Positions 1,417-63,973 of a stretch of DNA of 64,000 nt are shown one piece after another. Each line of letters begins with the position of its first letter. The first letter of the stretch is position 1. The DNA is taken from NCBI GenBank assembly GCA_001794025.1, contig MGJA01000007.1:219-64218 (forward strand), written 5' to 3'. The DNA comes from Candidatus Yanofskybacteria bacterium RIFCSPHIGHO2_01_FULL_41_21 (lineage in GTDB: Bacteria; Patescibacteriota; Minisyncoccia; 2-02-FULL-40-12; GWA2-44-9). The position numbers and the translations under genes were made by a program. The notes under the pieces were generated by a model, which saw only the letters and a program-made list of their open reading frames with translations, did not search any database and was not told where the DNA came from.

Positions 1417-1485
1417 ATCTCTTTTGGCTTCACTAATCTAAAGACACTGCTTTCAGCAAAAGATATTCTTCAACTCTATGGCGTA

Positions 1486-1875
1486 ATGCCGACGGAAAAA
1501 ATTATCCAAAGAGCGCTTAAGTGTTTAGGAATAAAAACCATTGCCGAATATACGATTTCAAAAAATGGCCGAAAATACCGCTTAGATTTTGCCGTATTTT
1601 GCCGGCAGGGTCAAATTGCGATTGAATGTGATAATCTTAAAGCCCACTCCACCAAAATTCAGGTCTTAAAAGACCGAGAGAAAGACAAATTTCTTAAATC
1701 CCTCGGCTGGCGGACAATACGACTGAAAGAAAAAGACATTATTGAACGACTCAATTTCTGTACCAATAAAATATCAGAACTTGTCAAAACCCTTGGTGGT
1801 CAAAAACCAATACCAAGTATGGAGGAATCCCTCAAAAAGATCTATAATGAAAACGTCTATGTCCCAAACAATTGA
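1486..1875 (+). CDS. DUF559 (Vsr-like) endonuclease domain protein
   Basis: The RLDFAV...IAIECD...H core matches the very-short-patch-repair-like DUF559 fold. Confidence 0.7.
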   Translation: MPTEKIIQRALKCLGIKTIAEYTISKNGRKYRLDFAVFCRQGQIAIECDNLKAHSTKIQVLKDREKDKFLKSLGWRTIRLKEKDIIERLNFCTNKISELVKTLGGQKPIPSMEESLKKIYNENVYVPNN

Positions 1876-2631: not shown

Positions 2632-4836
2632 ATGGACCTATCTCTTCCGATTGAGAAATTAAAGAATGTCGGTGCCCGCAATCTTCCCCGCCTTCATAAG
2701 TTGGGCATTAAAACCCTCCGAGATTTGTTGTGGCATATCCCCGCTCGCTATGAGGATTACAGCCAGATTATTCCTATCGCCGACTTGGTCCCCGATCAAA
2801 AAGCTACCGTTCAAGGCACCGTTGTCAAAATTAGTAGTCGACGTATCTTTCCCAGACGGTTAGTAATCATTGAGGCCATCATTGAAGACGATTCGGATAC
2901 AATTAAAGCCGTTTGGTTTAACCAACCCTACATCGCTACCACACTAGTTGAGGGCACCCGCGTTAGCTTGGCCGGAACCGTTAAACTTGATAAGCGTGGA
3001 CTATATCTGGCCAGTCCCAGCTATGAAAAGCTCCACACCGACGATTATTTCGCCTATCACCTCACTCACACCCATGGCCTTATCCCTGTTTATCCTGAAA
3101 CCGAGGGTGTCAGTTCAAAGTATCTAAGATTTTTAATTAAGCCCATTATTTCCGAGTTAGTTATTGAGGATCATCTATCCGAAGAATCCCGAATGCGGAA
3201 TGGCCTCATTGACCTAACCACTGCCCTGCAAAAAATTCATTATCCCCTCACTCTGGCCGAAGCCGAACAGGCCAAAGAACGCCTCGCCTTTGACGATTTG
3301 CTGTTATTCCAAATTAAAGCCCTCCTTGAACGAAGAAAAATAAACCAGCTCAAATCTCCCGCTATCCCGTTTGATAAGGAACTAGTCACCGACTTTATCA
3401 GACATCTTCCTTTTGAATTAACCAAAGATCAAAAAATAGCGGCTTGGGAAATATTAAAAGACCTTGAAAGGCCCTACCCCATGAATCGGCTTATGGAGGG
3501 AGATGTCGGTTCCGGCAAAACCGTCGTCGCTTTAATTGCCGCCATTCAAACCGCCCAGGATGGTTATCAAACCGTTTTCATGGCCCCGACCGAAGTCCTT
3601 GCCCACCAACATATGGAAACAATTCGCAAGCTTGTCGCTCATACCAATATTGAAGTTGGATTATTGACGAGTTCTACCGCTTGGACCACTTATAGCTTGG
3701 GCAAGAAGCCGGAAATTAAAAAACGCATTGCCCGAGGCGACACTAAAATAATCATTGGAACCCATGCCATCTTACAAAAAGACGTTGAGTTCAATAACCT
3801 TGCCCTGGTTGTCATTGATGAACAACATCGCTTTGGTGTCGCCCAACGCGCCGCCCTTGTCAAAAATAAGGAACTTGTTCCCCATTTGTTATCAATGACT
3901 GCTACACCCATCCCCCGCACTCTCGCCCTCACCATCTATGGCGACTTGGATATTTCTATCATTAAAGAAAAACCAAAGAATCGCCAAAAAATTATCACCC
4001 GCATTGTCCCCCCTTCCGGCCGACAGGAGGCCCATCAATTTATTCGTTCAGAAGCAAAAGCGAGCCGACAAGTTTTTGTCATCTGCCCGCGCATAGAGGT
4101 GAGTACTGTGACAGCAACTGGAACCTTACCCTTAAGCCCCAGTAGCGGAGGGGGTCCCTCTGGGGGAACCGCCGGGACTGGTTCCCCGGGTCTGGGGCGA
4201 GAGGGTAAGGTTTCAGTTGCCAAGCAACAAAAACTTGCTTTAGCTCAAGATATGAAAGCGGTCCAGGAGGAATACAAAAAACTATCCGAATTGGTATTCC
4301 CAGATTTAAAAGTAGGTATGCTTCACGGCAAAATGAAACCGAAAGAAAAAACGGAAATCATGAATCGTTTCAAAGAGGGTTTTACCGACATTCTCGTTTC
4401 CACATCCGTCATTGAAGTCGGCATAGATATTCCTAACGCCACCGTGATGATGATTGAAAACGCCGACCACTTCGGTCTCGCCCAACTTCATCAATTCCGA
4501 GGACGCATCGGTCGGGGCGAACATCAATCAACCTGTCTTTTGTTTACTTCCGGCGCCGAAAAAACAAGCAACCAACGATTGAAAGCTCTTGTCACAACTG
4601 ATGACGGCTTCCTTCTTGCTGAAAAAGACATGGCCATCCGCGGACCCGGCGAATTCTTCGGCACTGGCCAATCCGGCCTCCCTGACCTGGCAATGGCTGC
4701 TCTCGCCAACGTTGAACTAATTAAAAAGTCCCGCGCTGAAGCACGACTTATTCTCACCGAAGATCAGAACTTAACCAATCACCCCGAACTAAAACAACAA
4801 CTATTGAGATTCCAATCCATTATTCATTTTGAGTAA
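2632..4836 (+). CDS. recG: ATP-dependent DNA helicase RecG
   Basis: RecG wedge/N-terminal domain plus helicase motifs (GDVGSGKT, DEQHRFG, QLHQFRGRIGRG). It carries a GC-rich low-complexity insertion (GGGPSGGTAGTGSPGLG). Confidence 0.9.
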   Translation: MDLSLPIEKLKNVGARNLPRLHKLGIKTLRDLLWHIPARYEDYSQIIPIADLVPDQKATVQGTVVKISSRRIFPRRLVIIEAIIEDDSDTIKAVWFNQPYIATTLVEGTRVSLAGTVKLDKRGLYLASPSYEKLHTDDYFAYHLTHTHGLIPVYPETEGVSSKYLRFLIKPIISELVIEDHLSEESRMRNGLIDLTTALQKIHYPLTLAEAEQAKERLAFDDLLLFQIKALLERRKINQLKSPAIPFDKELVTDFIRHLPFELTKDQKIAAWEILKDLERPYPMNRLMEGDVGSGKTVVALIAAIQTAQDGYQTVFMAPTEVLAHQHMETIRKLVAHTNIEVGLLTSSTAWTTYSLGKKPEIKKRIARGDTKIIIGTHAILQKDVEFNNLALVVIDEQHRFGVAQRAALVKNKELVPHLLSMTATPIPRTLALTIYGDLDISIIKEKPKNRQKIITRIVPPSGRQEAHQFIRSEAKASRQVFVICPRIEVSTVTATGTLPLSPSSGGGPSGGTAGTGSPGLGREGKVSVAKQQKLALAQDMKAVQEEYKKLSELVFPDLKVGMLHGKMKPKEKTEIMNRFKEGFTDILVSTSVIEVGIDIPNATVMMIENADHFGLAQLHQFRGRIGRGEHQSTCLLFTSGAEKTSNQRLKALVTTDDGFLLAEKDMAIRGPGEFFGTGQSGLPDLAMAALANVELIKKSRAEARLILTEDQNLTNHPELKQQLLRFQSIIHFE

Positions 4837-5102: not shown

Positions 5103-6728
5103 CTACTTTCTGCCTTTCGGTGTTACCCAGAAACCCATATACCGACCAAACATGAGACGGGTTTGGGCATCTAGGGCGGGAATGGCGCCAAAGAAAATAA
5201 AGTTGATGGGGAACAAAAGCCATTGAAGGGCCATCCAGAGCCATTTAAACCGGCCGTATTGAGGCGGTTTTTCGGGAAGTAAAATAACACTCATAATCGC
5301 CGAGGTTACGAGACCAAGCAGGGCGATGTTCATAATAGCACTGGTGATACGAGGTAAGTTATAAGAAAGAATTGATGTCGTAAAAGTTAGTCCCCCGACC
5401 CAAAGAGGAAGCCAGCTCAATAAAAAGATTATTAAAGCATTGGTTGGACTGGAATGAGTGCGTTCAACCTGAATAAGTGTTTGATGCCATTTTTGACTGG
5501 AAGGAATTTTTTTGTTCTTAATGAATCCAAACATGAAGTAAGGATTATTTTCGGCGCCATAATGCCAACGACGAATCTGTTTATATTGATTTTTTAGAGT
5601 TTGCCAGAAAGTCGGACCGACATTAGCATCCATATAGACGGGATAATACATGGGAACGGTCTGCCAGTCGCCGTCATAACGCAAGAGGCATTGCCAATAA
5701 ATACGCGAGTCCTCACTAACGACATTCTTTTGCCAGAAACCGACATCAACCAAGGCCTGAAACCCAACTGAATGAGAAGAAAAAGTAACCATCTGCTCTT
5801 TACGGGACTGCTGAATCATTTGCCAGAATGTGGTTGAGAATGCAAAAACCCGAGCAAAAGCCGGGGCTTCCCAAATATTATTGGTAAAGATTGGAATGGG
5901 CTGGAATGAAGAATGCAACGGATCCGGTGCTGTCAAATAGTACCAAGATAAGCAAGCAAAGAAATCAGCCGGCACGACGGTATCAATATCAAAAACCGAA
6001 ACAATAATTCGGTCATAAGGAATGTTCAGTATATCAATGATTTCCCTTTTAACCTGTTCCCCCGCCCAGGCCTCATTTGATCCTTTTCCTGCTAATTCTC
6101 CGGTGATATTATCGGGATGGGTCGTGACGATAAATTTAAAAAAGGCATTACCAAACTCCGCTTCGGCCTGACGGGCCAATTCAACACTATGCACACCGGC
6201 CCGAGCTTCAGTCGCCAAAACCACAATCATTTTATCTTTAGGATAGTTGCTTTTAAAAATTGCATTTAAACTATCGCGGACGATGGAATATGGCTCTTTG
6301 TATGCCGGCAAAATAATGAGATTGAAAATGTTTTCCGCGCCAATTCCTTGTAACTTTGGATTTTCAGGAACAGAAGCGAGTCGATTAGTCCAATCAACCT
6401 TCAAATTGTGCCTCATTTTTAAAAATGATGACCGAGTCAAGACAGAAAGATAAATGGTCTTAATGAGCCAATAGATATCAAAAAGGATAATAAAAAAAGT
6501 GGCAAAGACCGGTGCTTTAAAAGAAACGAGAACAACCACCGCTAAAGTAGACCAGGCCAAAAAACCTGGAAAAACTTCCAATATTCTATACAACCGGCGG
6601 TCATGCGGATCCGCCAAGTCAAAAGCATTACCAACATGAAGATAATCAAGCATCCAGGTAGTAGATCTCCCGAAGTTTAAAAATCGCCCAGGCAGTCGGG
6701 AGTTCACTACCTGGTTCAGAGTGATCAT
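5103..6728 (-). CDS. family 2 glycosyltransferase, membrane-bound (processive beta-glycosyltransferase-like)
   Basis: A GT2 catalytic core is flanked by multiple TM helices. The overall size and layout resemble cellulose-synthase-like GT2 enzymes. Confidence 0.7.
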   Translation of the reverse strand: MITLNQVVNSRLPGRFLNFGRSTTWMLDYLHVGNAFDLADPHDRRLYRILEVFPGFLAWSTLAVVVLVSFKAPVFATFFIILFDIYWLIKTIYLSVLTRSSFLKMRHNLKVDWTNRLASVPENPKLQGIGAENIFNLIILPAYKEPYSIVRDSLNAIFKSNYPKDKMIVVLATEARAGVHSVELARQAEAEFGNAFFKFIVTTHPDNITGELAGKGSNEAWAGEQVKREIIDILNIPYDRIIVSVFDIDTVVPADFFACLSWYYLTAPDPLHSSFQPIPIFTNNIWEAPAFARVFAFSTTFWQMIQQSRKEQMVTFSSHSVGFQALVDVGFWQKNVVSEDSRIYWQCLLRYDGDWQTVPMYYPVYMDANVGPTFWQTLKNQYKQIRRWHYGAENNPYFMFGFIKNKKIPSSQKWHQTLIQVERTHSSPTNALIIFLLSWLPLWVGGLTFTTSILSYNLPRITSAIMNIALLGLVTSAIMSVILLPEKPPQYGRFKWLWMALQWLLFPINFIFFGAIPALDAQTRLMFGRYMGFWVTPKGRK

Positions 6729-18898: not shown

Positions 18899-19115
18899 CC
18901 CGCTTATAATAGCTTTTTTAGGTTATTTTTCAACCCCGCCGTTGAAGAACAGTAAGACCCCACAAGAGCGAACTGAAACCTAATAGTGACTATCGGTGTT
19001 GAAATATCTCGTTACAATAAAAAATGAAACCACTGTTCTTCAACGGCGGGGCCAATAAAAAACGGCCGGCGCCTGATACCCGAAGGTATCATTCACCGGC
19101 CACGTACAACCCGCC

Positions 19116-35621: not shown

Positions 35622-35758
35622 AATTTTAAATTCTGAGGCCATGATGGGACTTGTCATGGCTACGCCAGATCTAGCGAAGCTATGACACCCATGAATAACG
35701 GTTTTGTCCCGCTACGCGGGATCTCCCGAAGGGAGACAGACCACTCACCGAACCTCGG

Positions 35759-35831
35759 AGGTGCAGGCGGGATTTGCACCCGCGGATAGCGGTTTTGCAG
35801 ACCGCCGTGTTAGCTACTTCACCACTGCACC
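35759..35831 (-). tRNA. tRNA-Cys (anticodon GCA)
   Basis: Acceptor ggtgcag/ctgcacc with discriminator U, short D-stem, anticodon arm gcggt-ctGCAaa-accgc. The T-loop (tgcaaat) is atypical. Confidence 0.65.
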
Positions 35832-36068
35832 ATATTTATTTTTCAATATCTCTTTTTGCTGATGATTTTTTAAGAATCTCTCATATTGAACTGCTTCACT
35901 TCTTGTTTCGAAAGAATGTGATTCTAATAATTGCCACGGTCTATATCCTTTTGTCGACCGAACTTCACCGTTGTTATGCCGTGCTAAACGAATACTAACA
36001 TTTTCAGCACTCCCGACATAAAAATCACCATTTTTTTGACTTTTTAAGACATACGTAAAATAGCTCAT
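35814..36068 (-). CDS. GIY-YIG nuclease family protein (small, YhbQ-like)
   Basis: The start is set at MSYFTYVLKSQKNGDFYVGSAENVSIRLARHNNG (GIY-YIG motif). The ORF's last 18 nt read into the 5' end of tRNA-Cys. Confidence 0.65.
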   Translation of the reverse strand: MSYFTYVLKSQKNGDFYVGSAENVSIRLARHNNGEVRSTKGYRPWQLLESHSFETRSEAVQYERFLKNHQQKEILKNKYGAVVK

Positions 36069-36151
36069 ATTTCTTTTGTCTCGCTTCGCGAGATCTGGCG
36101 AAGCCAGACAGACCGCAGCGTTTCCACTTCGCCACAGCACCTTCATTGTGA

Positions 36152-44412: not shown

Positions 44413-44967
44413 GTGGCCGATAAAGGCGGACTACAATTACTCCCCGAGACCAGAAAGAAGATAGACATTAAAATTCCCGGAGAAAATAGATTGATTCTCA
44501 TAGGCATTGGTCTTGTTGTTTTGGTATTACTATTTGCTGGAGGGTTGTGGATGTATAGCAATAATCTCACTGACCAAATCAGTACCGCCGACAAACAACT
44601 CGCCGACCTGGAGGCCCAGCGCGATAAAAAAGTTGAACAAAATTTAGTCACCCTTTCCAAACAAATTGTTTTAACTAGTCGGATTCTTGAAGATCATATC
44701 TATTGGTCTACGGGATTCTCTAAAATTGAATCTGCCCAACAAAGTAACGTTCAGTTTAAATCACTTTCGGCCGTCTTAGGCGAGAAAAGTATCCGTGTCA
44801 GAGCCCTTAGTGATAACTACACCACTATCGCCAGACAATTGGCCGCCTTTGTGGCTGATAATTCAGTTAAAGATGTCTCTCTTGATAGTGTCAGCACGCT
44901 TACATCCGGTAAACTGGACTTCAATATCAAGATTAAGTTTGATGAGACCAAATTCTTAAAAAATTAA
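44413..44967 (+). CDS. pilN: PilN-like pilus assembly protein
   Basis: Single N-terminal TM helix, then a coiled-coil and periplasmic domain. Position is immediately after pilM. Confidence 0.6.
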   Translation: MADKGGLQLLPETRKKIDIKIPGENRLILIGIGLVVLVLLFAGGLWMYSNNLTDQISTADKQLADLEAQRDKKVEQNLVTLSKQIVLTSRILEDHIYWSTGFSKIESAQQSNVQFKSLSAVLGEKSIRVRALSDNYTTIARQLAAFVADNSVKDVSLDSVSTLTSGKLDFNIKIKFDETKFLKN

Positions 44968-45085
44968 TTCATCCCGTTAGAAGTGAGCCCTACAAATAAA
45001 ATTATGAAAATCATTAAATCACACATATGTAATTTGCCACCACTACAATATGGTGGACAATTCGTAACACTTCTAACGGGATGAA
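44968..45085 (+). promoter_or_regulatory. intercistronic inverted-repeat element (18-bp perfect arms) enclosing the pilO start codon
   Basis: ttcatcccgttagaagtg ...(inner hairpin ccacca/tggtgg)... cacttctaacgggATGaa. The left arm begins right after the pilN stop and the right arm contains the pilO ATG. Confidence 0.6.
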
Positions 45086-45611
45086 TTTATACAGAACATA
45101 CATTGGAGCCACCCTCGTTGCCATCGCCGGAATTATTTTCTGGACAATGGTTGTGCCGGCTTATGATGATATCCTTGTTAAACGCGACGCTATCGCGGAG
45201 AGAACCGATATCATTAAGACCAGAAGCGATATTTTATCCAATATTAAGGCCTTGAGTTTAGAATATTCCAATAAAGCCACGGATATAACCCGTTTTGCAT
45301 CCATGGTACCCGAAAAAAAGGGCGTACCGGAACTTCTTTCTTCTATTCAAGCCCTTGCCACTCAAAATGGACTCCAACTCACAACAATTGCTTTAAGTGA
45401 AAATAGTAATCCTGGAGCAGCAGATTATCAAACACAATTAATTGACCTTGGTCTTAATGGTGGCTATCTGGCCTTTAAATCTTTCCTAATGGCTCTTGAA
45501 AGAAACATCCGTCTCATTGATATTATATCTATAAGTGCCAGTCCGGTTTCTGAAGATTCTCCGATTATAAATTTTAGTATTAAGGGGAATGCTTATTATT
45601 TAAAACAATGA
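45081..45611 (+). CDS. pilO: PilO-like pilus assembly protein
   Basis: N-terminal TM helix, then a coiled-coil and periplasmic domain, placed after pilN. Confidence 0.6.
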   Translation: MNLYRTYIGATLVAIAGIIFWTMVVPAYDDILVKRDAIAERTDIIKTRSDILSNIKALSLEYSNKATDITRFASMVPEKKGVPELLSSIQALATQNGLQLTTIALSENSNPGAADYQTQLIDLGLNGGYLAFKSFLMALERNIRLIDIISISASPVSEDSPIINFSIKGNAYYLKQ

Positions 45612-45883: not shown

Positions 45884-46000
45884 GCTTTTGTCCAAGAACG
45901 CGGTGATTGGTTACAAAAGTTTACCCCCTCACTCTTTTCAGCTTGAGTGAGGGGGTGACAAGTTTCTAGCAACTCAGCGTCGCAGCAACTGCTCGCTTCG

Positions 46001-48875: not shown

Positions 48876-48967
48876 AATAGCCCTCCTACGCTAAAGCTTC
48901 GGACGGGCACTTCTTCGCTCACCAGCAAGAAATGCCTGCACTTCGAAGCTCCAGCAGGAGCGAAGAA

Positions 48968-50170
48968 GTGGAGTATAAATACCAAACCAAAAATGCAGAC
49001 GGTCAGATTGTGGAGGGGATTATAGACGCGCCATCAGAAGATAGCGCTATTTCTATTCTTCACAGCAAACAAGTCGTTGTTTTATCACTTGAAGAATTTA
49101 AGAAAGACGTTTTTTCTAAAGACCTGAACCAGGTTTTATCAAGAACAACAACAAAAGATATTGTTGTGTTCACACGTCAAATGGCGACACTCATTGAGGC
49201 CGATATGCCCCTCGCCGAAGGTCTTCGTACTCTTGCTCAACAAACCGAGAAACCGGGATTAAAAAAGATAGTCATGGATGTTGCCAAAAATGTTGAAGGG
49301 GGTTCTTCATTGTCATCGGCCCTAAGCAACCACCCCAAGGTATTTACCACTTTCTATATTAAACTGGTCCAATCCGGAGAGGTCTCCGGTAAACTTCAGG
49401 CATCATTATCATATCTGGCTGATTACCTTGAACGCAGTCAAAGTATTAATTCCAAAATAAGAGGAGCGTTAATTTATCCGGCCTTTGTGGTCTCGGCCAT
49501 GATTATCGTTATGCTGATTATGGGCGTCTACGTTTTACCCCAATTGCTTTCAATATTTGAGGACTCGGGCATCACCGAATTACCAATCACGACCAGAATA
49601 CTGATGGCCGGTACGGACTTTCTTAATAATTACCTCTATTACATCTTACTGGTCTTAATCGTTGGGGGCTTTCTAACCGTCCGATTCTTAAAAACAACTA
49701 AAGGTAAGATTTGGCGAGACAACTTCTTAGTCACTATGCCTAGTTTGGGAAAAGTTATTCAAAATCTTTACTTGGCTCGCGTATCCGAGAGTTTGTCTAC
49801 CCTCATTAAGTCGGGGCTACCAATTCTTGATGCTTTGCATATAGCATCCGACCTTGTTGGCAATGAAAACTATAGAAGAATCATTATCGCGGCCGAGGAA
49901 AATGTTCGAAATGGCGGTAATATATCCGAAATTCTTAGCCAATATGCCGAAATGCCACCATTGTTCAGCTCTATGGTCGCCATCGGGGAAAGGACGGGCA
50001 AGCTTGACTACATGCTTGAACACGTCTCTAAATTTTATAAGTCCGAGTCCGAAACAGCCATTGGAAGCATCACCCAGTTAATTGAGCCAATACTGGTCCT
50101 CGTCCTTGGTTTCGGTGTCGCCATCTTGGTTTCCAGTATTTTGTTGCCAATTTATAGTATGGTGGGTTAA
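48968..50170 (+). CDS. pilC: type IV pilus platform protein PilC (GspF family)
   Basis: Two GspF repeats. The start is set at GTG with AGGAG 7 nt upstream (MEYKYQTKNADGQIVEG...). The longer ATG ORF would run through an upstream repeat element. Confidence 0.8.
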   Translation: MEYKYQTKNADGQIVEGIIDAPSEDSAISILHSKQVVVLSLEEFKKDVFSKDLNQVLSRTTTKDIVVFTRQMATLIEADMPLAEGLRTLAQQTEKPGLKKIVMDVAKNVEGGSSLSSALSNHPKVFTTFYIKLVQSGEVSGKLQASLSYLADYLERSQSINSKIRGALIYPAFVVSAMIIVMLIMGVYVLPQLLSIFEDSGITELPITTRILMAGTDFLNNYLYYILLVLIVGGFLTVRFLKTTKGKIWRDNFLVTMPSLGKVIQNLYLARVSESLSTLIKSGLPILDALHIASDLVGNENYRRIIIAAEENVRNGGNISEILSQYAEMPPLFSSMVAIGERTGKLDYMLEHVSKFYKSESETAIGSITQLIEPILVLVLGFGVAILVSSILLPIYSMVG

Positions 50171-50181
50171 TTTTAGTGTTG

Positions 50182-50471
50182 ACACTCACACCTAGTCGGC
50201 TTTATGTATTATTTTTATATTCTGAAAAATGATGAAGGGGGTCTTTATTTTGGTTATACATCAGATTTAAAAAAGAGGATTGAGCAACACAATTCTTCAA
50301 CAACAAGAACAACAGCGGGTAAGCATTGGAAAGTTATATATTATGAAGCTTATTATTCTCAATCCGACGCAAAACACAGAGAATATAGTATAAAGTTGCG
50401 TGGAAATGCTTACCTTCAACTGAAAAGAAGAATTAAGAATTGTGTTGCTGAAGCCGACTAGGTGTGAGTGT
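50182..50471 (+). mobile_element. mini selfish element: GIY-YIG ORF bounded by 21-bp perfect terminal inverted repeats, inserted between pilC and pilA
   Basis: Left inverted repeat acactcacacctagtcggctt at 50182-50202, right inverted repeat aagccgactaggtgtgagtgt at 50451-50471. The ORF fills the interior and its stop codon lies inside the right inverted repeat. Confidence 0.6.
50204..50461 (+). CDS. GIY-YIG nuclease family protein (85 aa)
   Basis: MYYFYILKNDEGGLYFGYTSDLKKRIEQHN has the GIY...YIG motif. Confidence 0.65.
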   Translation: MYYFYILKNDEGGLYFGYTSDLKKRIEQHNSSTTRTTAGKHWKVIYYEAYYSQSDAKHREYSIKLRGNAYLQLKRRIKNCVAEAD

Positions 50472-50541
50472 TGATATCTTAACTTGTACTTTCTAATGAA
50501 CGGCTCATAATAGAGCTAATAAACTAATCTAATTTTCAACC

Positions 50542-51066
50542 GTGTCTATTAAAAAACACTTTCGTCTCTCTAGAGGTTTTACGTTAGTTGAATTGTTGGT
50601 CGTTATCGCTATTATCGGTATTTTGGCGACCTTACTTCTTCTGCAATTAGGTGTCGCTCGTCAACGCGCTAGAGACGTCAAGCGTATTGCTGATGTTAAT
50701 CAGTTAAGAACTTCTGTGGAACTCTACTATGATGATAATGGTTCATATCCGGCCGATATTACTAATACCGAATTAAGTAAATACATGGTTCGGGTTCCAA
50801 CCGACCCATTAGTTGCTGCTACTACTTACGGCTACAAAACAAAAACCGCTGCTAAATTACAGTACCAGGTCTGGACCGAACTTGAACAAAAAGCTCTTGG
50901 TGCTCTTAATGCCGATGCCGACATTAATGCTAGTGCATGGGCTGGACCAGGTAACGCCAGGGGAGGCGTTGATGGCAGAGGGGAAGCCCCGGGTGTCGCT
51001 GAGGCCTGCGCAAACAGTGATACAACAGATAACGAATGTGTCTACGACCAAGGTCAAAATATGTAA
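50542..51066 (+). CDS. pilA: type IV major pilin (prepilin-type N-terminal cleavage/methylation domain)
   Basis: Leader ...RLSRG|FTLVELLVVIAIIGILA with Glu at +5, and two Cys in the C-terminal region. Confidence 0.85.
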   Translation: MSIKKHFRLSRGFTLVELLVVIAIIGILATLLLLQLGVARQRARDVKRIADVNQLRTSVELYYDDNGSYPADITNTELSKYMVRVPTDPLVAATTYGYKTKTAAKLQYQVWTELEQKALGALNADADINASAWAGPGNARGGVDGRGEAPGVAEACANSDTTDNECVYDQGQNM

Positions 51067-51891: not shown

Positions 51892-52501
51892 GAGAGGGCC
51901 TGTCCCGCCGTTGAAGAGTCGTGCTACTAGTAGACACGCTAATTTAAATTTTTTAAAAAAATACGACTCTTCAACGGCGGGGTTCACTCTAGTTGAAATA
52001 CTGGTCGTCGCAGCAATTATTGGATTTTTAAGCACTTCTCTTATCCTCAATTTTTCTAGGAGTCGGATTAATATTGAGCAGAATGCTAATCTTGTTATGG
52101 CGACCATCCGTGAAGCCCAATCAAAAACCGTTTCCAGTACGATTTATAACGGTTATAATCCATGCGGTTACGGCGTTCATTATATTAGTCCAACTCAACT
52201 GGCTATCTATGTTGGACCAGACGCCGCCACCGCAGACCCAAGTTGTGCGACTATGGATAAACGTTATAACGCTAACCGAGATTCTATTTTAATAACCAGG
52301 ACTTTCATTGATTCCCGTGTTGAAATGAAAAACCCATTTTTAGACATCTTCTTTCTGCCACCGGACCCAAAAACATATTTGGATAATGATGCTTCATTAA
52401 ATGGCTCACCAATTAGTATCCAAATAGGTGTTGCCGGAGAGGCCTGTTCCCAAAATTGCCGAACCATATCCATAGACCCATCCGGAAAAATAGAATATTG
52501 A
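51857..52501 (+). CDS. minor pilin-like protein (prepilin-type N-terminal domain; start uncertain)
   Basis: G|FTLVEILVVAAIIGFL is preceded by an unusually long leader (~40 aa from the ATG). A 19-bp perfect inverted repeat lies inside the leader region. Confidence 0.6.
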   Translation: MKYSHSRHFSDKRGPVPPLKSRATSRHANLNFLKKYDSSTAGFTLVEILVVAAIIGFLSTSLILNFSRSRINIEQNANLVMATIREAQSKTVSSTIYNGYNPCGYGVHYISPTQLAIYVGPDAATADPSCATMDKRYNANRDSILITRTFIDSRVEMKNPFLDIFFLPPDPKTYLDNDASLNGSPISIQIGVAGEACSQNCRTISIDPSGKIEY

Positions 52502-52618
52502 TAATCCCGTTAGAAGTTAACTCAAACATGAATAACATTTTAAATAATATGAAACCTCCTAAACTTGCCACCATTTTGAAGCGGTGGACGTTCGGTAGAA
52601 CTTCTAACGGGATGAAAT
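52502..52618 (+). promoter_or_regulatory. second copy of the pilus-locus inverted-repeat element enclosing a pilin start codon
   Basis: atcccgttagaagtt ...(inner hairpin ccacc/ggtgg)... aacttctaacgggATGaa. It begins 1 nt after the upstream stop codon. Confidence 0.6.
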
Positions 52619-53085: not shown

Positions 53086-53708
53086 TTAATAATTTTCAAA
53101 ATAAATCAGCAAAAAACCAAAGTGGGTTTATCCCGCACATAAAGAACCGCTTTGGAATCAAGCCACGAAGTGGCTACGGTTCATTATGTGCGGGGTTTAC
53201 GATTATTGAGGTTTTGGTCTCGGCCTTTGTTTTTTCAATTATCGCAATCGTCGTTGGCGGTTTATTTGTGCAGATTCTCGCCTCCGAACGCCGAGCTTTT
53301 GCTTCTCAAAAAATTCAGGAAAACGGCCTCTTTATTATGGAACTGATGTCGCGAGAGATACGAGTTAGCCAAATAATGGACAGCGATCAAAATCCATCAG
53401 GGGATTCACCAAATTGTACACTAACCGAATTGACTATCCGACATCCGGTCAATGGTGTTATAAAATACAATCTTCTGAATGATGTTCTTCAGCGTATTAG
53501 TGTTGATGAAAGCGCCACAACTGATTTAAGTTCTTCAACTGTGTCTTTTTCCCGTTTGAATTTTTGCCTTTTAGGTTCTGACCCAGACGATAATCAGCAA
53601 GCTCGGGTCGCTATTCTTACATCAATTCAAAATAAAACCGGTAAAGAAATCGTAACCGCTAACCTAGAGACCGCCGTCTCTTCCCGTGATGTTCAAATTG
53701 AATTCTAA
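53082..53708 (+). CDS. minor pilin-like protein (long leader)
   Basis: G|FTIIEVLVSAFVFSIIAIVVG prepilin core with a ~33-aa leader. The leader region contains a 17/18-bp inverted repeat. Confidence 0.6.
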   Translation: MINNFQNKSAKNQSGFIPHIKNRFGIKPRSGYGSLCAGFTIIEVLVSAFVFSIIAIVVGGLFVQILASERRAFASQKIQENGLFIMELMSREIRVSQIMDSDQNPSGDSPNCTLTELTIRHPVNGVIKYNLLNDVLQRISVDESATTDLSSSTVSFSRLNFCLLGSDPDDNQQARVAILTSIQNKTGKEIVTANLETAVSSRDVQIEF

Positions 53709-62432: not shown

Positions 62433-62508
62433 GCCCTTGTAGTTCAATGGATAAGAACAGTCCCGTCCTAAGGGATAGATGTAGGTTCGATTCCTACTGA
62501 GGGCACCA
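62433..62508 (+). tRNA. tRNA-Arg (anticodon CCU), CCA encoded
   Basis: Acceptor gcccttg/tgagggc (two G-U pairs), D-stem gttc/gaac, anticodon arm gtccc-gtCCTaa-gggat, T-loop gtaggttcgattcctac. Confidence 0.75.
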
Positions 62509-63973
62509 CAATCAAACTTTCCGATTTTTGCCCGACCGATTCGGCCGCGCGAAGCGCGGAAAGGTATGGAAGCACTGGCTCGCCGCGCACGGCGCGGCTC
62601 GCCAAGCGCAGGTTCGAGCCAAAGATTTCTTTGGCAGCAACCTTCTTCGCAAGAAGGTTGCTATCCCTTGCGATTTTGACGAGGGTTAAAGCGACTTTTA
62701 TCCAGTTTTGGAACGGTTCGAGCCAATCATTCTGCTTTTGTTCAATCCGCGCCATTTTCTCCTCCAGCGACTTCTTTTCCAAAAGGAGTTTTGTTTTTTG
62801 TTCGCGGTAGATTTCTCGCTCAATGTCCTGCTCTAAATAGCCGTCCAGAAGTCGCTGGAGCTTCGTTTGTATGGCGCGGATTTTGATTTGAGATTCAAGA
62901 ACAAAAGCAGAAACGGATTGGGCGGATACCGCTTTGTCTTTTTCTGCCATTGCTAACAATTTTTCCGCCCAATCCGGTCGCAAAGAAACTTTTTGAATAA
63001 GAGATGATAACTGCCGATCCAATTCTTCCTCGCGGGCATAAGGTTGAGAACATTTGATTTTCTTTTTGGTACAGCGGTAGTAAATATGTCCTTTCTGTTT
63101 TTCGGCAGTTATCATCATCCCGCACTCGGCGCAAGAGATAAGGCCGCAAAATGCTTGCGGTTCATTCTTTTGCTTATACCTCGGCTTTCCTCGTTGGTGT
63201 AAAATCTCTTGCGCCATATCAAAAAGTTTCTTTGTGATGATTGGCTCGTACTTTCCTTCGTGGAGTTCACCGCCATATTTGAATAATCCGGTGTAGAACG
63301 GATTGGAAAGGATAAAAGTCGCCCTCGTCTTGTGGATTCTCTTTCCGCCGCGGGAGAATATCCCGCGTTGCGCCAAAAAGTTTGAAATATCCTCTAACCG
63401 CGAATTTCCTTTTGCGTACAGCTCAAACGCTTGGCGAATAATCCGAGCTTTCTTGCGGTCAACAACGATAGATTTAGTTCGTACATCATTTATGTAGCCG
63501 ATAGGCGCAACGCTCGGATATTCGCCCCGTCTCACTTTTTGGCGCAAACCACGCTTCGTGTTTTCGGAAAGAGAATCCACATAGTATTTGCTTTGCCCAA
63601 AAGCGATATTCAACATAAATTTTCCTTGCGGCGTTGGCTCAAACCAGAATTGAGGGAATTTCAACGCTGCAATATGCCCGCAATCAATGAGATAAATGAT
63701 TTGTCCACCATCTACAGAATTGCGCGCCAATCTGTCCGGATGCCAAGCCAAAATTCCGTCCGCCTCGCCATGTTCAATTCTTTTCAGCATTTTGCCAAAT
63801 ATCGGACGGCCCGGAATTTTGGCTGATTGTTTCTCTACAAATTCCTCTACCATATAGAGATTATTTTGCTTGGCAAAAGCGCGCAATTCTGTGATCTGCG
63901 CTTCAATACTCAAAACTTGTTTATCCTCAACATCTGTTGATTTGCGGGCGTAGAGAAAAAATTTGTTGTTCAT
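62468..63973 (-). CDS. large serine recombinase (resolvase/invertase N-domain + recombinase domain + zinc ribbon)
   Basis: N-terminal catalytic Ser context (LYARKSTDVEDKQVLSIEAQ), a recombinase domain, a Cys4 zinc ribbon (CAECG...CTKKKIKC) and a coiled-coil. The ORF's 3' end reads into tRNA-Arg (...VGIEPTSIP). Confidence 0.85.
   Translation of the reverse strand: MNNKFFLYARKSTDVEDKQVLSIEAQITELRAFAKQNNLYMVEEFVEKQSAKIPGRPIFGKMLKRIEHGEADGILAWHPDRLARNSVDGGQIIYLIDCGHIAALKFPQFWFEPTPQGKFMLNIAFGQSKYYVDSLSENTKRGLRQKVRRGEYPSVAPIGYINDVRTKSIVVDRKKARIIRQAFELYAKGNSRLEDISNFLAQRGIFSRGGKRIHKTRATFILSNPFYTGLFKYGGELHEGKYEPIITKKLFDMAQEILHQRGKPRYKQKNEPQAFCGLISCAECGMMITAEKQKGHIYYRCTKKKIKCSQPYAREEELDRQLSSLIQKVSLRPDWAEKLLAMAEKDKAVSAQSVSAFVLESQIKIRAIQTKLQRLLDGYLEQDIEREIYREQKTKLLLEKKSLEEKMARIEQKQNDWLEPFQNWIKVALTLVKIARDSNLLAKKVAAKEIFGSNLRLASRAVRGEPVLPYLSALRAAESVGQKSESLIVVPSVGIEPTSIP

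Follow-up and report, generated by a model that had tools for sequence, protein, structure and literature searches.

A GIY-YIG gene bounded by inverted repeats, inserted between pilC and a pilin gene in a Yanofskybacteria genome, and its relatives

The 64,000-nucleotide stretch of Candidatus Yanofskybacteria bacterium RIFCSPHIGHO2_01_FULL_41_21 considered here (contig MGJA01000007.1; the whole stretch is called the window below) carries, between pilC and a pilin gene (pilA), a 290-bp unit made up of one 85-amino-acid (aa) GIY-YIG open reading frame (ORF) and perfect terminal inverted repeats. Comparison with related loci identifies this unit as a fairly recent insertion of a minimal selfish element, accompanied by an 8-bp target duplication, into the sequence TAGTGTTGATATC just upstream of the pilin gene. 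The element belongs to a large family, mostly from Patescibacteria (the candidate phyla radiation, CPR) and from some other phyla, in which we observe insertion polymorphism, target duplication, a conserved repeat whose two arms covary, purifying selection on the protein, a bias in orientation, and ORF-less derivatives. The best reading of these observations is that the family is the GIY-YIG-coding counterpart of the intervening sequences (IVSs) of rRNA genes, sense-oriented within transcribed DNA. We hold, with somewhat better than even confidence, that the cassettes are selfish, IVS-like mobile elements, in which the repeat would act both as a site in DNA and as a stem in RNA. A preliminary description of the window had recognized the unit as a minimal selfish element; it overlooked the family-wide, strongly selected repeat and the overlap with rRNA intervening sequences.

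The insertion between pilC and the pilin gene

The two repeat arms (50182-50202, ACACTCACACCTAGTCGGCTT, and 50451-50471, AAGCCGACTAGGTGTGAGTGT) are 21 nt each, 100% complementary and separated by 248 nt, and the only sizeable ORF within the 290-bp unit that they bound begins with an ATG at 50204 and ends at 50461. The ATG starts at the second base past the left arm, 50203 being the single spacer base, and the TAG stop codon (50459-50461) lies within the right arm, which encodes the final three codons as well as the stop. The coordinates of the preliminary description are exact in all of this, and the short direct repeat that it had noticed over both ends is confirmed as the 8-bp sequence AGTGTTGA, present at 50175-50182 and again at 50467-50474. 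The 21-mer of the arms, with up to three mismatches allowed, occurs at just these two sites in the 64-kb window, and 100 shuffles gave 0 matches. The features of the locus are as follows.

48932-50170, + strand: pilC (T2SSF/PilC homologue, E=4e-58), the upstream host gene
50175-50182: left copy of the target duplication (AGTGTTGA), overlapping the left arm by one base, the last of the copy and the first of the arm
50182-50202, + strand: left repeat arm, with an intrinsic core at 50185-50202 (CTCACACCTAGTCGGCTT); the outer 3 nt pair with target-derived TGT
50183-50474, + strand: inserted DNA according to the empty-site alignment, 292 bp (284-bp element plus one 8-bp duplication copy), boundaries ambiguous within the repeat
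50204-50461, + strand: predicted stand-alone GIY-YIG gene of UPF0213 or bacterial Slx1-like type, 85 aa (Pfam, PDB matches, AlphaFold model, catalytic residues)
50283-50297, + strand: 5' arm of an internal helix (AGCAACACAATTCTT), codons EQHNSS
50435-50449, + strand: 3' arm of the internal helix (AAGAATTGTGTTGCT), codons KNCVA, stacked directly beneath the terminal stem
50451-50471, + strand: right repeat arm
50467-50474: right copy of the target duplication (AGTGTTGA), contiguous with the native motif upstream of pilA (AGTGTTGATATCTTAACTTG)
50542-51066, + strand: pilin gene (N-terminal methylation motif), downstream and co-oriented, with the prepilin peptidase gene next

A metagenome scan with the C-terminal half of PilC returned 47 related pilC loci (55-97% PilC identity), and every locus that reaches far enough downstream has a pilin gene after pilC. 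None of these 47 loci has the GIY-YIG gene, and in no relative is it a normal member of the operon. In at least eight of them (L093-L098, L100, L118) the short spacer has the motif (TA)GTGTTGATATC or (TA)GTGTTGATATCTTGACTTG once, directly after pilC, which constitutes the empty form of the site (TAGTGTTGATATC, also written TTTTAGTGTTGATATCTT). The same motif is split in the window by 292 bp with AGTGTTGA on either side, the right copy being contiguous with the pilA-proximal part, and the exact empty junction expected for the window species is GGTTAATTTTAGTGTTGATATCTTAAC. Because AGTGTTGA is present in a single copy in the empty sites, the direct repeat is a true target duplication. These empty sites, together with the many copies of the same repeat architecture elsewhere, support the minimal selfish insertion of the preliminary description. 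Its further statement that the unit interrupts the pilus operon holds only in a loose sense; the insertion lies in the spacer, ahead of the conserved motif upstream of pilA, which is left intact on the pilA side.

The same point has received other DNA. L091, whose DNA is 89-92% identical to that of the window, has at the pilC-pilA site a 137-nt ORF-less element with 19-bp arms (TCCCGCACATAACAAGCGC and GCGCTTGTTATGTGCGGGA), and L092 has a 28-nt palindrome (CCCCCACACTCATG/CATGAGTGTGGGGG); both lie within about 10 nt of the insertion point of the window copy, and the pilC-pilA point is hence an insertion hot spot. We also note that the motif TAGTGTTGATATCTTGACTTG (50467-50487 in the window, about 2270-2300 in L093-L100 and L118), conserved upstream of pilA in at least eight relatives, coincides with the hot spot.

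The distribution of filled and empty sites bears on whether the unit might be a feature of the host, namely an intercistronic RNA stem-loop that sets the ratio of pilC to pilA expression and that has a domesticated repair nuclease inside it. Purifying selection on the protein (see below), the fixation and invariance of the element in the sampled population, and the further long stems found between pil genes would all agree with such a role. Against it stand the absence of the cassette from all 47 related pil loci, the duplication of the target, and the occurrence of the same cassette in rRNA helices, tRNA leaders and unrelated operons, and we consider a host feature very improbable.

The repeat that is intrinsic to the element is 18 bp long (CTCACACCTAGTCGGCTT), and the outer 3 bp (ACA/TGT) arise at the junction with target DNA. 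Relative to the family members at tRNA-Glu sites described below, one C-to-A change together with native target bases (TGT) lengthens the repeat from 18 to 21 bp. An origin of the outer bases as P-nucleotides left by hairpin opening was considered and rejected, since the junction is not a perfect palindrome; the C-to-A change and the native target bases account for the three extra pairs. Assemblies of different samples gave 24 contigs in which this arrangement is identical, and an assembly artefact is therefore excluded. Ten readable contigs that encode the exact protein are all identical across the element, with no empty allele of the species among them.

Folded as RNA, the terminal stem extends with G-U pairs to 50176-50203 and 50450-50477 (28 bp; minimum free energy -99.5 kcal/mol, z = -8.8) and runs on into a second, internal helix of 15 bp that pairs nt 80-94 of the ORF with nt 232-246. 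The internal helix is kept in nine of nine members of the subfamily formed by the window and tRNA-Glu copies (scores of 12-16 vs a shuffle maximum of 10), and analogues with other sequences occur in two further subfamilies. Promoter-like sites within the element are not above chance and it has no terminator; the GIY-YIG gene, having no promoter signal of its own, presumably depends on read-through from pilB and pilC, with pilC probably supplying the transcription. A search of 50100-50560 against Rfam gave no match even at E<=10, and the whole window gave only tRNAs. A group I or group II intron or a ribozyme was rejected on this ground and because the interior is nearly all coding.

The protein, its repeat and the sites of its relatives

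The 85-aa protein matches the Pfam GIY-YIG family (PF01541, E=2.5e-14, 53.8 bits vs a cut-off of 22.6) and no NCBIfam family. A profile search of PDB sequences retrieved the UPF0213 proteins BH0048 (1zg2, E=2.9e-12) and EF2693 (1ywl, E=7e-9), followed by an Slx1 homologue. In an alignment of 42 sequences Y15, G17, R25, H29, E48 and E60 never vary and Y5 and N30 hardly do, and the catalytic residues expected of the superfamily are present, namely the Tyr of GIY, the Tyr-x-Gly of YIG, an Arg, a His or Tyr and the metal-binding Glu. The AlphaFold2 model (mean predicted local distance difference test score, pLDDT, 87.7) has strands at residues 2-9, 14-19 and 42-50 and helices at 22-30, 53-64 and 68-84, which is the beta-beta-alpha-beta-alpha(-alpha) topology of GIY-YIG domains, and it agrees best in fold with 1zg2, 1ywl and Slx1 in its complex with branched DNA (6seh_C; template modelling (TM) score 0.63, root mean square deviation (rmsd) 2.4). 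The protein thus comprises the catalytic domain alone, without a DNA-binding extension, and sequence and model together place it, as a predicted nuclease, in the minimal stand-alone GIY-YIG branch of Slx1 and UPF0213, a branch described by Dunin-Horkawicz et al. (PMC1564403). The GIY-YIG gene is the only ORF of the element, which encodes none of the known kinds of transposase (DDE, HUH, serine or tyrosine recombinase).

Beyond 117 close cluster representatives of the window protein (mostly 87 aa), a scan of species-representative genomes yielded 518 relatives; the best 80 of the 518 were fetched, and with the window they form the 81 loci analysed here. A bracketing stem of 13-22 bp (score >=13), arranged as in the window, is present in 70 of the 81, the left arm stopping 0-25 nt before the ATG and the right arm overlapping the stop codon or coming directly after it. 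When the stems of 67 non-identical loci are aligned on an almost invariant CAC, positions -4 to +13 form Watson-Crick pairs in 84-100% of loci (at least 91% up to +10), C predominates at positions -4 to -2, and each position from +3 to +13 is occupied by three or four pair types. Overall, 93% of stem positions are Watson-Crick paired vs 49% with permuted partners, and 0 of 500 permutations reach the observed value.

The repeat is conserved as sequence in addition to being conserved as a pairing. Between copies the repeats are about 95-100% identical, even with unrelated flanks, vs 45-70% at third codon positions, and copies whose synonymous sites are near saturation have repeats that are identical or differ by a compensated change. 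Among relatives dN/dS is 0.01-0.16, with synonymous sites near saturation (proportion of synonymous differences, pS, 0.45-0.85), and the protein is under purifying selection. As the repeats are conserved beyond third codon positions and dN/dS is low, the full repeat sequence and the protein are both functionally constrained.

Family members occupy three kinds of site. Of the 80 relatives, 16 lie inside rRNA genes (eleven in 23S, five in 16S), always in sense. Covariance-model alignment shows the repeat replacing or extending a native hairpin at positions 1207-1226 of the large-subunit (LSU) rRNA model (helix 45, L040) and in helix 6 of the small-subunit (SSU) rRNA (L027), and the flanks CAAGCAGTGGGAG and TGACCGCGT, shared by L010, L015, L024 and L049, belong to what we take to be helix 25 of 23S rRNA, going by the E. 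coli sequence. Helices 25 and 45 are classical IVS sites (PMC4990558). At a further nine of the 80 loci the element abuts the 5' end of a tRNA gene, its right arm overlapping tRNA nt 1-3. All four of the homologues nearest to the window protein (70-72% identity) are directly 5' of tRNA-Glu(CTC), and their repeat is CCCTCACACCTACTCAGCTT or a variant of it that is doubly compensated. To the left of elements at tRNA sites stands a repeat of the opening 7 nt (Glu subfamily) or 9-11 nt (Ala/Val/Ile subfamily) of the tRNA of the genome in question, and these duplications always start at tRNA nt +1; L001, L037 and L079 have stacked partial tRNA 5' fragments with ORF-less hairpins. Outside rRNA and tRNA sites the nearest downstream ORF is on the same strand as the GIY-YIG gene in 36 of 39 cases (36:3), and one family copy stands just ahead of an L10 leader.

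At 27% of loci, vs 0.9% of controls, a direct repeat of 6 nt or longer runs across the right end and has its other copy flush with the left arm. One metagenome-assembled genome (MAG) contains three GIY-YIG loci (L038, L045, L079), and a phage-vector check found no relatives in viral contigs. Three observations on the surroundings of these loci may be added. Right after the right arm, L006, L018 and L078 have TGTGGATAA, whose reverse complement reads as a DnaA box; L051 has a match to the type III hammerhead ribozyme at 1459-1514 (- strand), near its GIY-YIG locus; and L023 has group II intron domains at 3832-4145 and 5590-5660, just downstream of the 23S/5S operon that bears the GIY-YIG insert.

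The preliminary description had called the element homing-type. If it were a classical free-standing homing endonuclease gene, the nuclease would cut the empty site, recombinational repair would copy the gene into it, and the repeat would only dampen or time expression. GIY-YIG is a classical homing endonuclease family (PMC1564403), filled and empty alleles of one site occur in related genomes, the closest subfamily is always found at the same tRNA-Glu site, and rRNA and tRNA genes are typical homing targets. However, the target is duplicated over 8 bp, the bare 85-aa catalytic domain has no DNA-binding extension, proteins that are 45-70% identical sit at many unrelated sites, the family as a whole using rRNA helices, tRNA 5' ends and promoter-proximal spacers, and ORF-less elements with the same ends have spread. 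Moreover, the flanks of related copies are unrelated and hence offer no homology for recombinational copying. The homing label is not supported, and we regard a homing gene of this kind as quite unlikely.

ORF-less relatives and the spread of the cassettes

In the 455 kb made up of all loci and the window, we searched for ORF-less inverted repeats with arms of at least 10 nt and the C-rich/CAC end motif and found 36, vs 0-1 in shuffles, typically about 100-135 nt overall; they exceed the chance level roughly 100-fold. Several share their ends with a GIY-YIG copy nearby: the outer 9-17 nt are common to ORF-less elements and the resident GIY-YIG copy in L010, L023, L038, L065 and L075. L010 has two such elements (1531-1636 and 5604-5709) in the same rRNA operon as its GIY-YIG insert, L023 has two (211-309 and 1243-1340) in its 23S gene, and in both loci they share their first 11-13 nt with the insert. 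In L040 an element at 1209-1313 has its end motif in common with the GIY-YIG insert of the same operon, and in L038 the shared stretch reaches 17 nt. Tandem arrangements occur in L014 and L062. The ORF-less elements of about 100 nt in L010, L023 and L040 lie inside 16S or 23S genes, in non-CPR as well as CPR genomes. Two ORF-less elements are in the window itself:

45923-45956: 34-nt hairpin (ACCCCCTCACTC...GAGTGAGGGGGT) whose end motif matches the GIY-YIG elements of L029, L041 and L057
53132-53194: 63-nt repeat element (CCCGCACATAA...TTATGTGCGGG) with the same end as the 137-nt ORF-less element of L091

We hypothesize that the outermost 8-13 nt of the repeat, a conserved stretch that is C-rich and then reads CAC, serve as DNA cis sites for the structure-specific nuclease that the element encodes, and that action of this nuclease on the ends would spread the element and, in trans, its ORF-less relatives. 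Ends that serve as nuclease sites would explain why ORF-bearing and ORF-less elements have them in common, why the whole repeat is conserved, why G-U pairs are scarce, and why the protein has the fold of a structure-specific nuclease. In the host transcript the arms would pair into a stem of at least 20 bp that hides the start codon and that may be a substrate for RNase III-type processing, leaving insertions in rRNA, tRNA leaders and operons phenotypically silent, and the gene, lacking a promoter, would ride on host transcription. An RNA stem that renders the insertion harmless would explain why sense is the only orientation tolerated within rRNA helices, tRNA leaders and operons. The 23S IVS of Coxiella offers a parallel, with a 28-bp terminal-repeat stem that is cut by RNase III and an ORF inside, and RNase III-type processing of IVSs has been demonstrated experimentally for Coxiella, Salmonella and Leptospira (PMC4990558).

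Several points weigh against this IVS-like account. G-U pairs are nearly absent within the stems (0-1% at most positions), and the mismatches inside stems (15 G-U, 9 A-C, 9 other) amount to a weak G-U excess that is not decisive between RNA and DNA; an excess of G-U just outside the stems stems from the recurrent TTG...TGA flanks and not from selection on RNA. Scarce G-U fits pairing at the DNA level, or recognition by a protein, better than it fits a stem selected purely as RNA. The length of the duplication varies (6-13 nt), and no duplication is present at rRNA sites or in over half of the loci, a pattern of variable or missing duplications that fits no known transposition chemistry. To our knowledge GIY-YIG enzymes are hydrolytic nucleases and are not known as strand-transferases, so that host repair would have to finish the insertion. 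The nuclease activity, its substrate and the cleavage of RNA are themselves predictions here. In the window the repeat of this element occurs in a single copy, which shows no variation across the sampled population, and any current activity in this genome is hypothetical. Flanks are conserved among L006, L011 and L018 and between L029 and L041, and some subfamilies may have resided at orthologous sites for long and been passed on vertically.

Part of this evidence would suit a DNA transposon of a new kind, with the Slx1-like GIY-YIG protein as its transposase and a repeat that acts at the DNA level only, the RNA stem being a by-product. The arms would pair in single-stranded DNA, at replication forks or in the non-template strand of highly transcribed genes; the nuclease would cut structured targets (helix tips, the base of the tRNA acceptor stem) as well as the stem at its base, and repair would seal the ends and leave variable duplications. 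In favour of such an element are the strictly Watson-Crick pairing with hardly any G-U, the conservation of the whole repeat far beyond synonymous sites, an outer motif common to distant subfamilies and to ORF-less copies in the same genome, and the target duplications that the empty site validates. The tRNA duplications that begin at nt +1 and the rRNA inserts at helix tips suggest recognition of structure, and the fold matches Slx1, a nuclease of branched DNA. However, we know of no GIY-YIG transposase and of no strand-transfer chemistry for the domain, the duplications are variable in length and often absent, the strong bias toward sense (36:3, and sense throughout in rRNA and tRNA hosts) requires an extra explanation, and inserts in rRNA must still be tolerated at the RNA level. 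We consider this purely DNA-level reading unlikely. A proposal to which we give a substantial, though less than even, chance is that the cassettes constitute a previously unrecognized class of prokaryotic transposable element, in which the 85-aa Slx1-like nuclease, as the only protein, would recognize its own hairpin ends and structured targets while host repair completes the insertion.

Relation to known systems, and other repeats of the window

Since about 1990 the bacterial rRNA IVSs, which have terminal repeats, have been recognized as "selfish" inserts; most of them are without an enzyme, and we know of no explanation of how they move. The ORF-bearing IVSs of 23S rRNA (such as the helix-45 IVSs of Coxiella burnetii and Leptospira, with the S23p ORF) resemble the GIY-YIG cassettes in being short selfish inserts with a terminal-repeat stem of 20-28 bp and one small ORF, in being distributed sporadically, and in occupying helix tips (25, 45), where L040 and L010, L015, L024 and L049 are also found (PMC4990558). 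They differ in that their protein is the four-helix S23p protein and not a GIY-YIG nuclease; the window copy is in an mRNA spacer and most family members are in tRNA leaders or mRNA spacers instead of rRNA, and target duplications and ORF-less derivatives with common ends are seen in the GIY-YIG family.

GIY-YIG ORFs in rRNA insertions of CPR bacteria that are not introns were reported by Tsurumaki et al. 2024 (PMC11270868), who cite Brown et al. 2015 as having first noted them. These inserts involve the same protein family and host group as ours, and they too are neither group I nor group II introns; that study, unlike ours, covers rRNA genes only, its main text does not use the term "inverted repeat", and in its judgement the ORFs do not belong to homing. 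It is the present analysis that contributes the repeat bracketing the ORF, the sites at tRNA genes and in operons, the duplicated target and the relatives without an ORF. No description of repeat-bracketed GIY-YIG cassettes outside rRNA was found in the searchable full-text literature, a body from which subscription journals are largely missing, and their absence from the literature as a whole is unproven. UPF0213 proteins (BH0048, EF2693 and E. coli YhbQ) and eukaryotic Slx1 share the minimal GIY-YIG domain with the cassette protein in sequence and fold; they are, however, regarded as chromosomal, repair-type proteins (PMC1564403), and a mobile, repeat-bracketed context is not described for them in the searchable literature.

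Other mobile systems share single aspects of this arrangement. Free-standing GIY-YIG homing genes (T4 Seg, I-TevI) are likewise small selfish nuclease genes in spacers or near tRNA genes; however, they have a large DNA-binding domain, long specific sites, no duplication and no terminal repeats, and the window protein is in the Slx1/UPF0213 branch and not in that of homing endonucleases and UvrC. In I-TevI the translation start is sequestered by RNA structure. REP/REPIN-RAYT systems and IS200/IS605 combine a small nuclease-type gene between inverted hairpin repeats with many ORF-less copies, and the likeness to the REP/RAYT layout suggests, by analogy, action in trans on structured DNA ends. 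The resemblance is in logic only, as the enzyme there is an HUH Y1 transposase and here a GIY-YIG protein; REP elements, in addition, are not sense-placed inside rRNA and tRNA transcription units. Insertion sequences and MITEs (miniature transposable elements with inverted repeats) share the terminal inverted repeats and the target-site duplication with the cassettes, which differ in having no known class of transposase.

A family that joins IVS architecture with a nuclease gene, an empty site, a target duplication and ORF-less kin makes the mobility of IVSs testable with an 85-aa protein and a 20-bp repeat. If the cassettes do form a new class of transposable element, rRNA IVSs and many CPR hairpin repeats would for the first time gain a mobility enzyme and a mechanism. 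The family would also explain some of the insertions and hairpin repeats with which CPR/Patescibacteria genomes are unusually loaded. The cassette would further illustrate a harmless route of entry into highly expressed stable-RNA genes and operons. As a practical matter, cassettes break assemblies, as the many GIY-YIG loci that end at contig edges suggest, and they inflate ORF calls, extended pilin leaders being one example.

The genomes, most of them CPR, are generally rich in hairpins beyond this family: the 455 kb contain 454 perfect inverted repeats (at least 10 nt, within 220 nt) vs 74-101 in shuffles. Minor pilin genes of the window have inverted-repeat elements (51904-51981, 53132-53194 and 52504-52613) within their 5' ends or immediately ahead of them; in two cases the right arm ends exactly at the Gly of the prepilin cleavage motif G/FT(L/I), and the annotated pilin leaders are therefore lengthened. 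Two more repeat-bounded families of about 80-120 nt, with the ends CCCGCCGTTGAAGA and ATCCCGTTAGAAGT, have two window copies each (18934-19051 with 51904-51981, and 44966-45087 with 52504-52613), and these have neither the CAC motif nor an associated ORF.

On the minus strand, a 501-aa serine-recombinase-like ORF (62468-63973) adjoins a tRNA-Arg gene and contains many nested perfect inverted repeats of 12-17 nt; its DNA has no Rfam match, and over 62680-63330 it folds with z = -15.5, an extraordinary value for coding DNA. The window also has a second, distantly related GIY-YIG ORF of 84 aa (36068-35814, - strand; region 35657-36146). Ahead of this ORF stands a diverged copy of nt 1-33 of tRNA-Cys, and at its other end the final codons enter the intact tRNA-Cys (35831-35757); a 24-nt inverted repeat of 92% identity (36106-36083 and 35680-35657) encloses the ORF together with the tRNA. 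A double-hairpin unit, TCTGGCTTCGCCAGATCTCGCGAAGCGAGACAAAAG, is found again after the tRNA-Cys with compensated changes.

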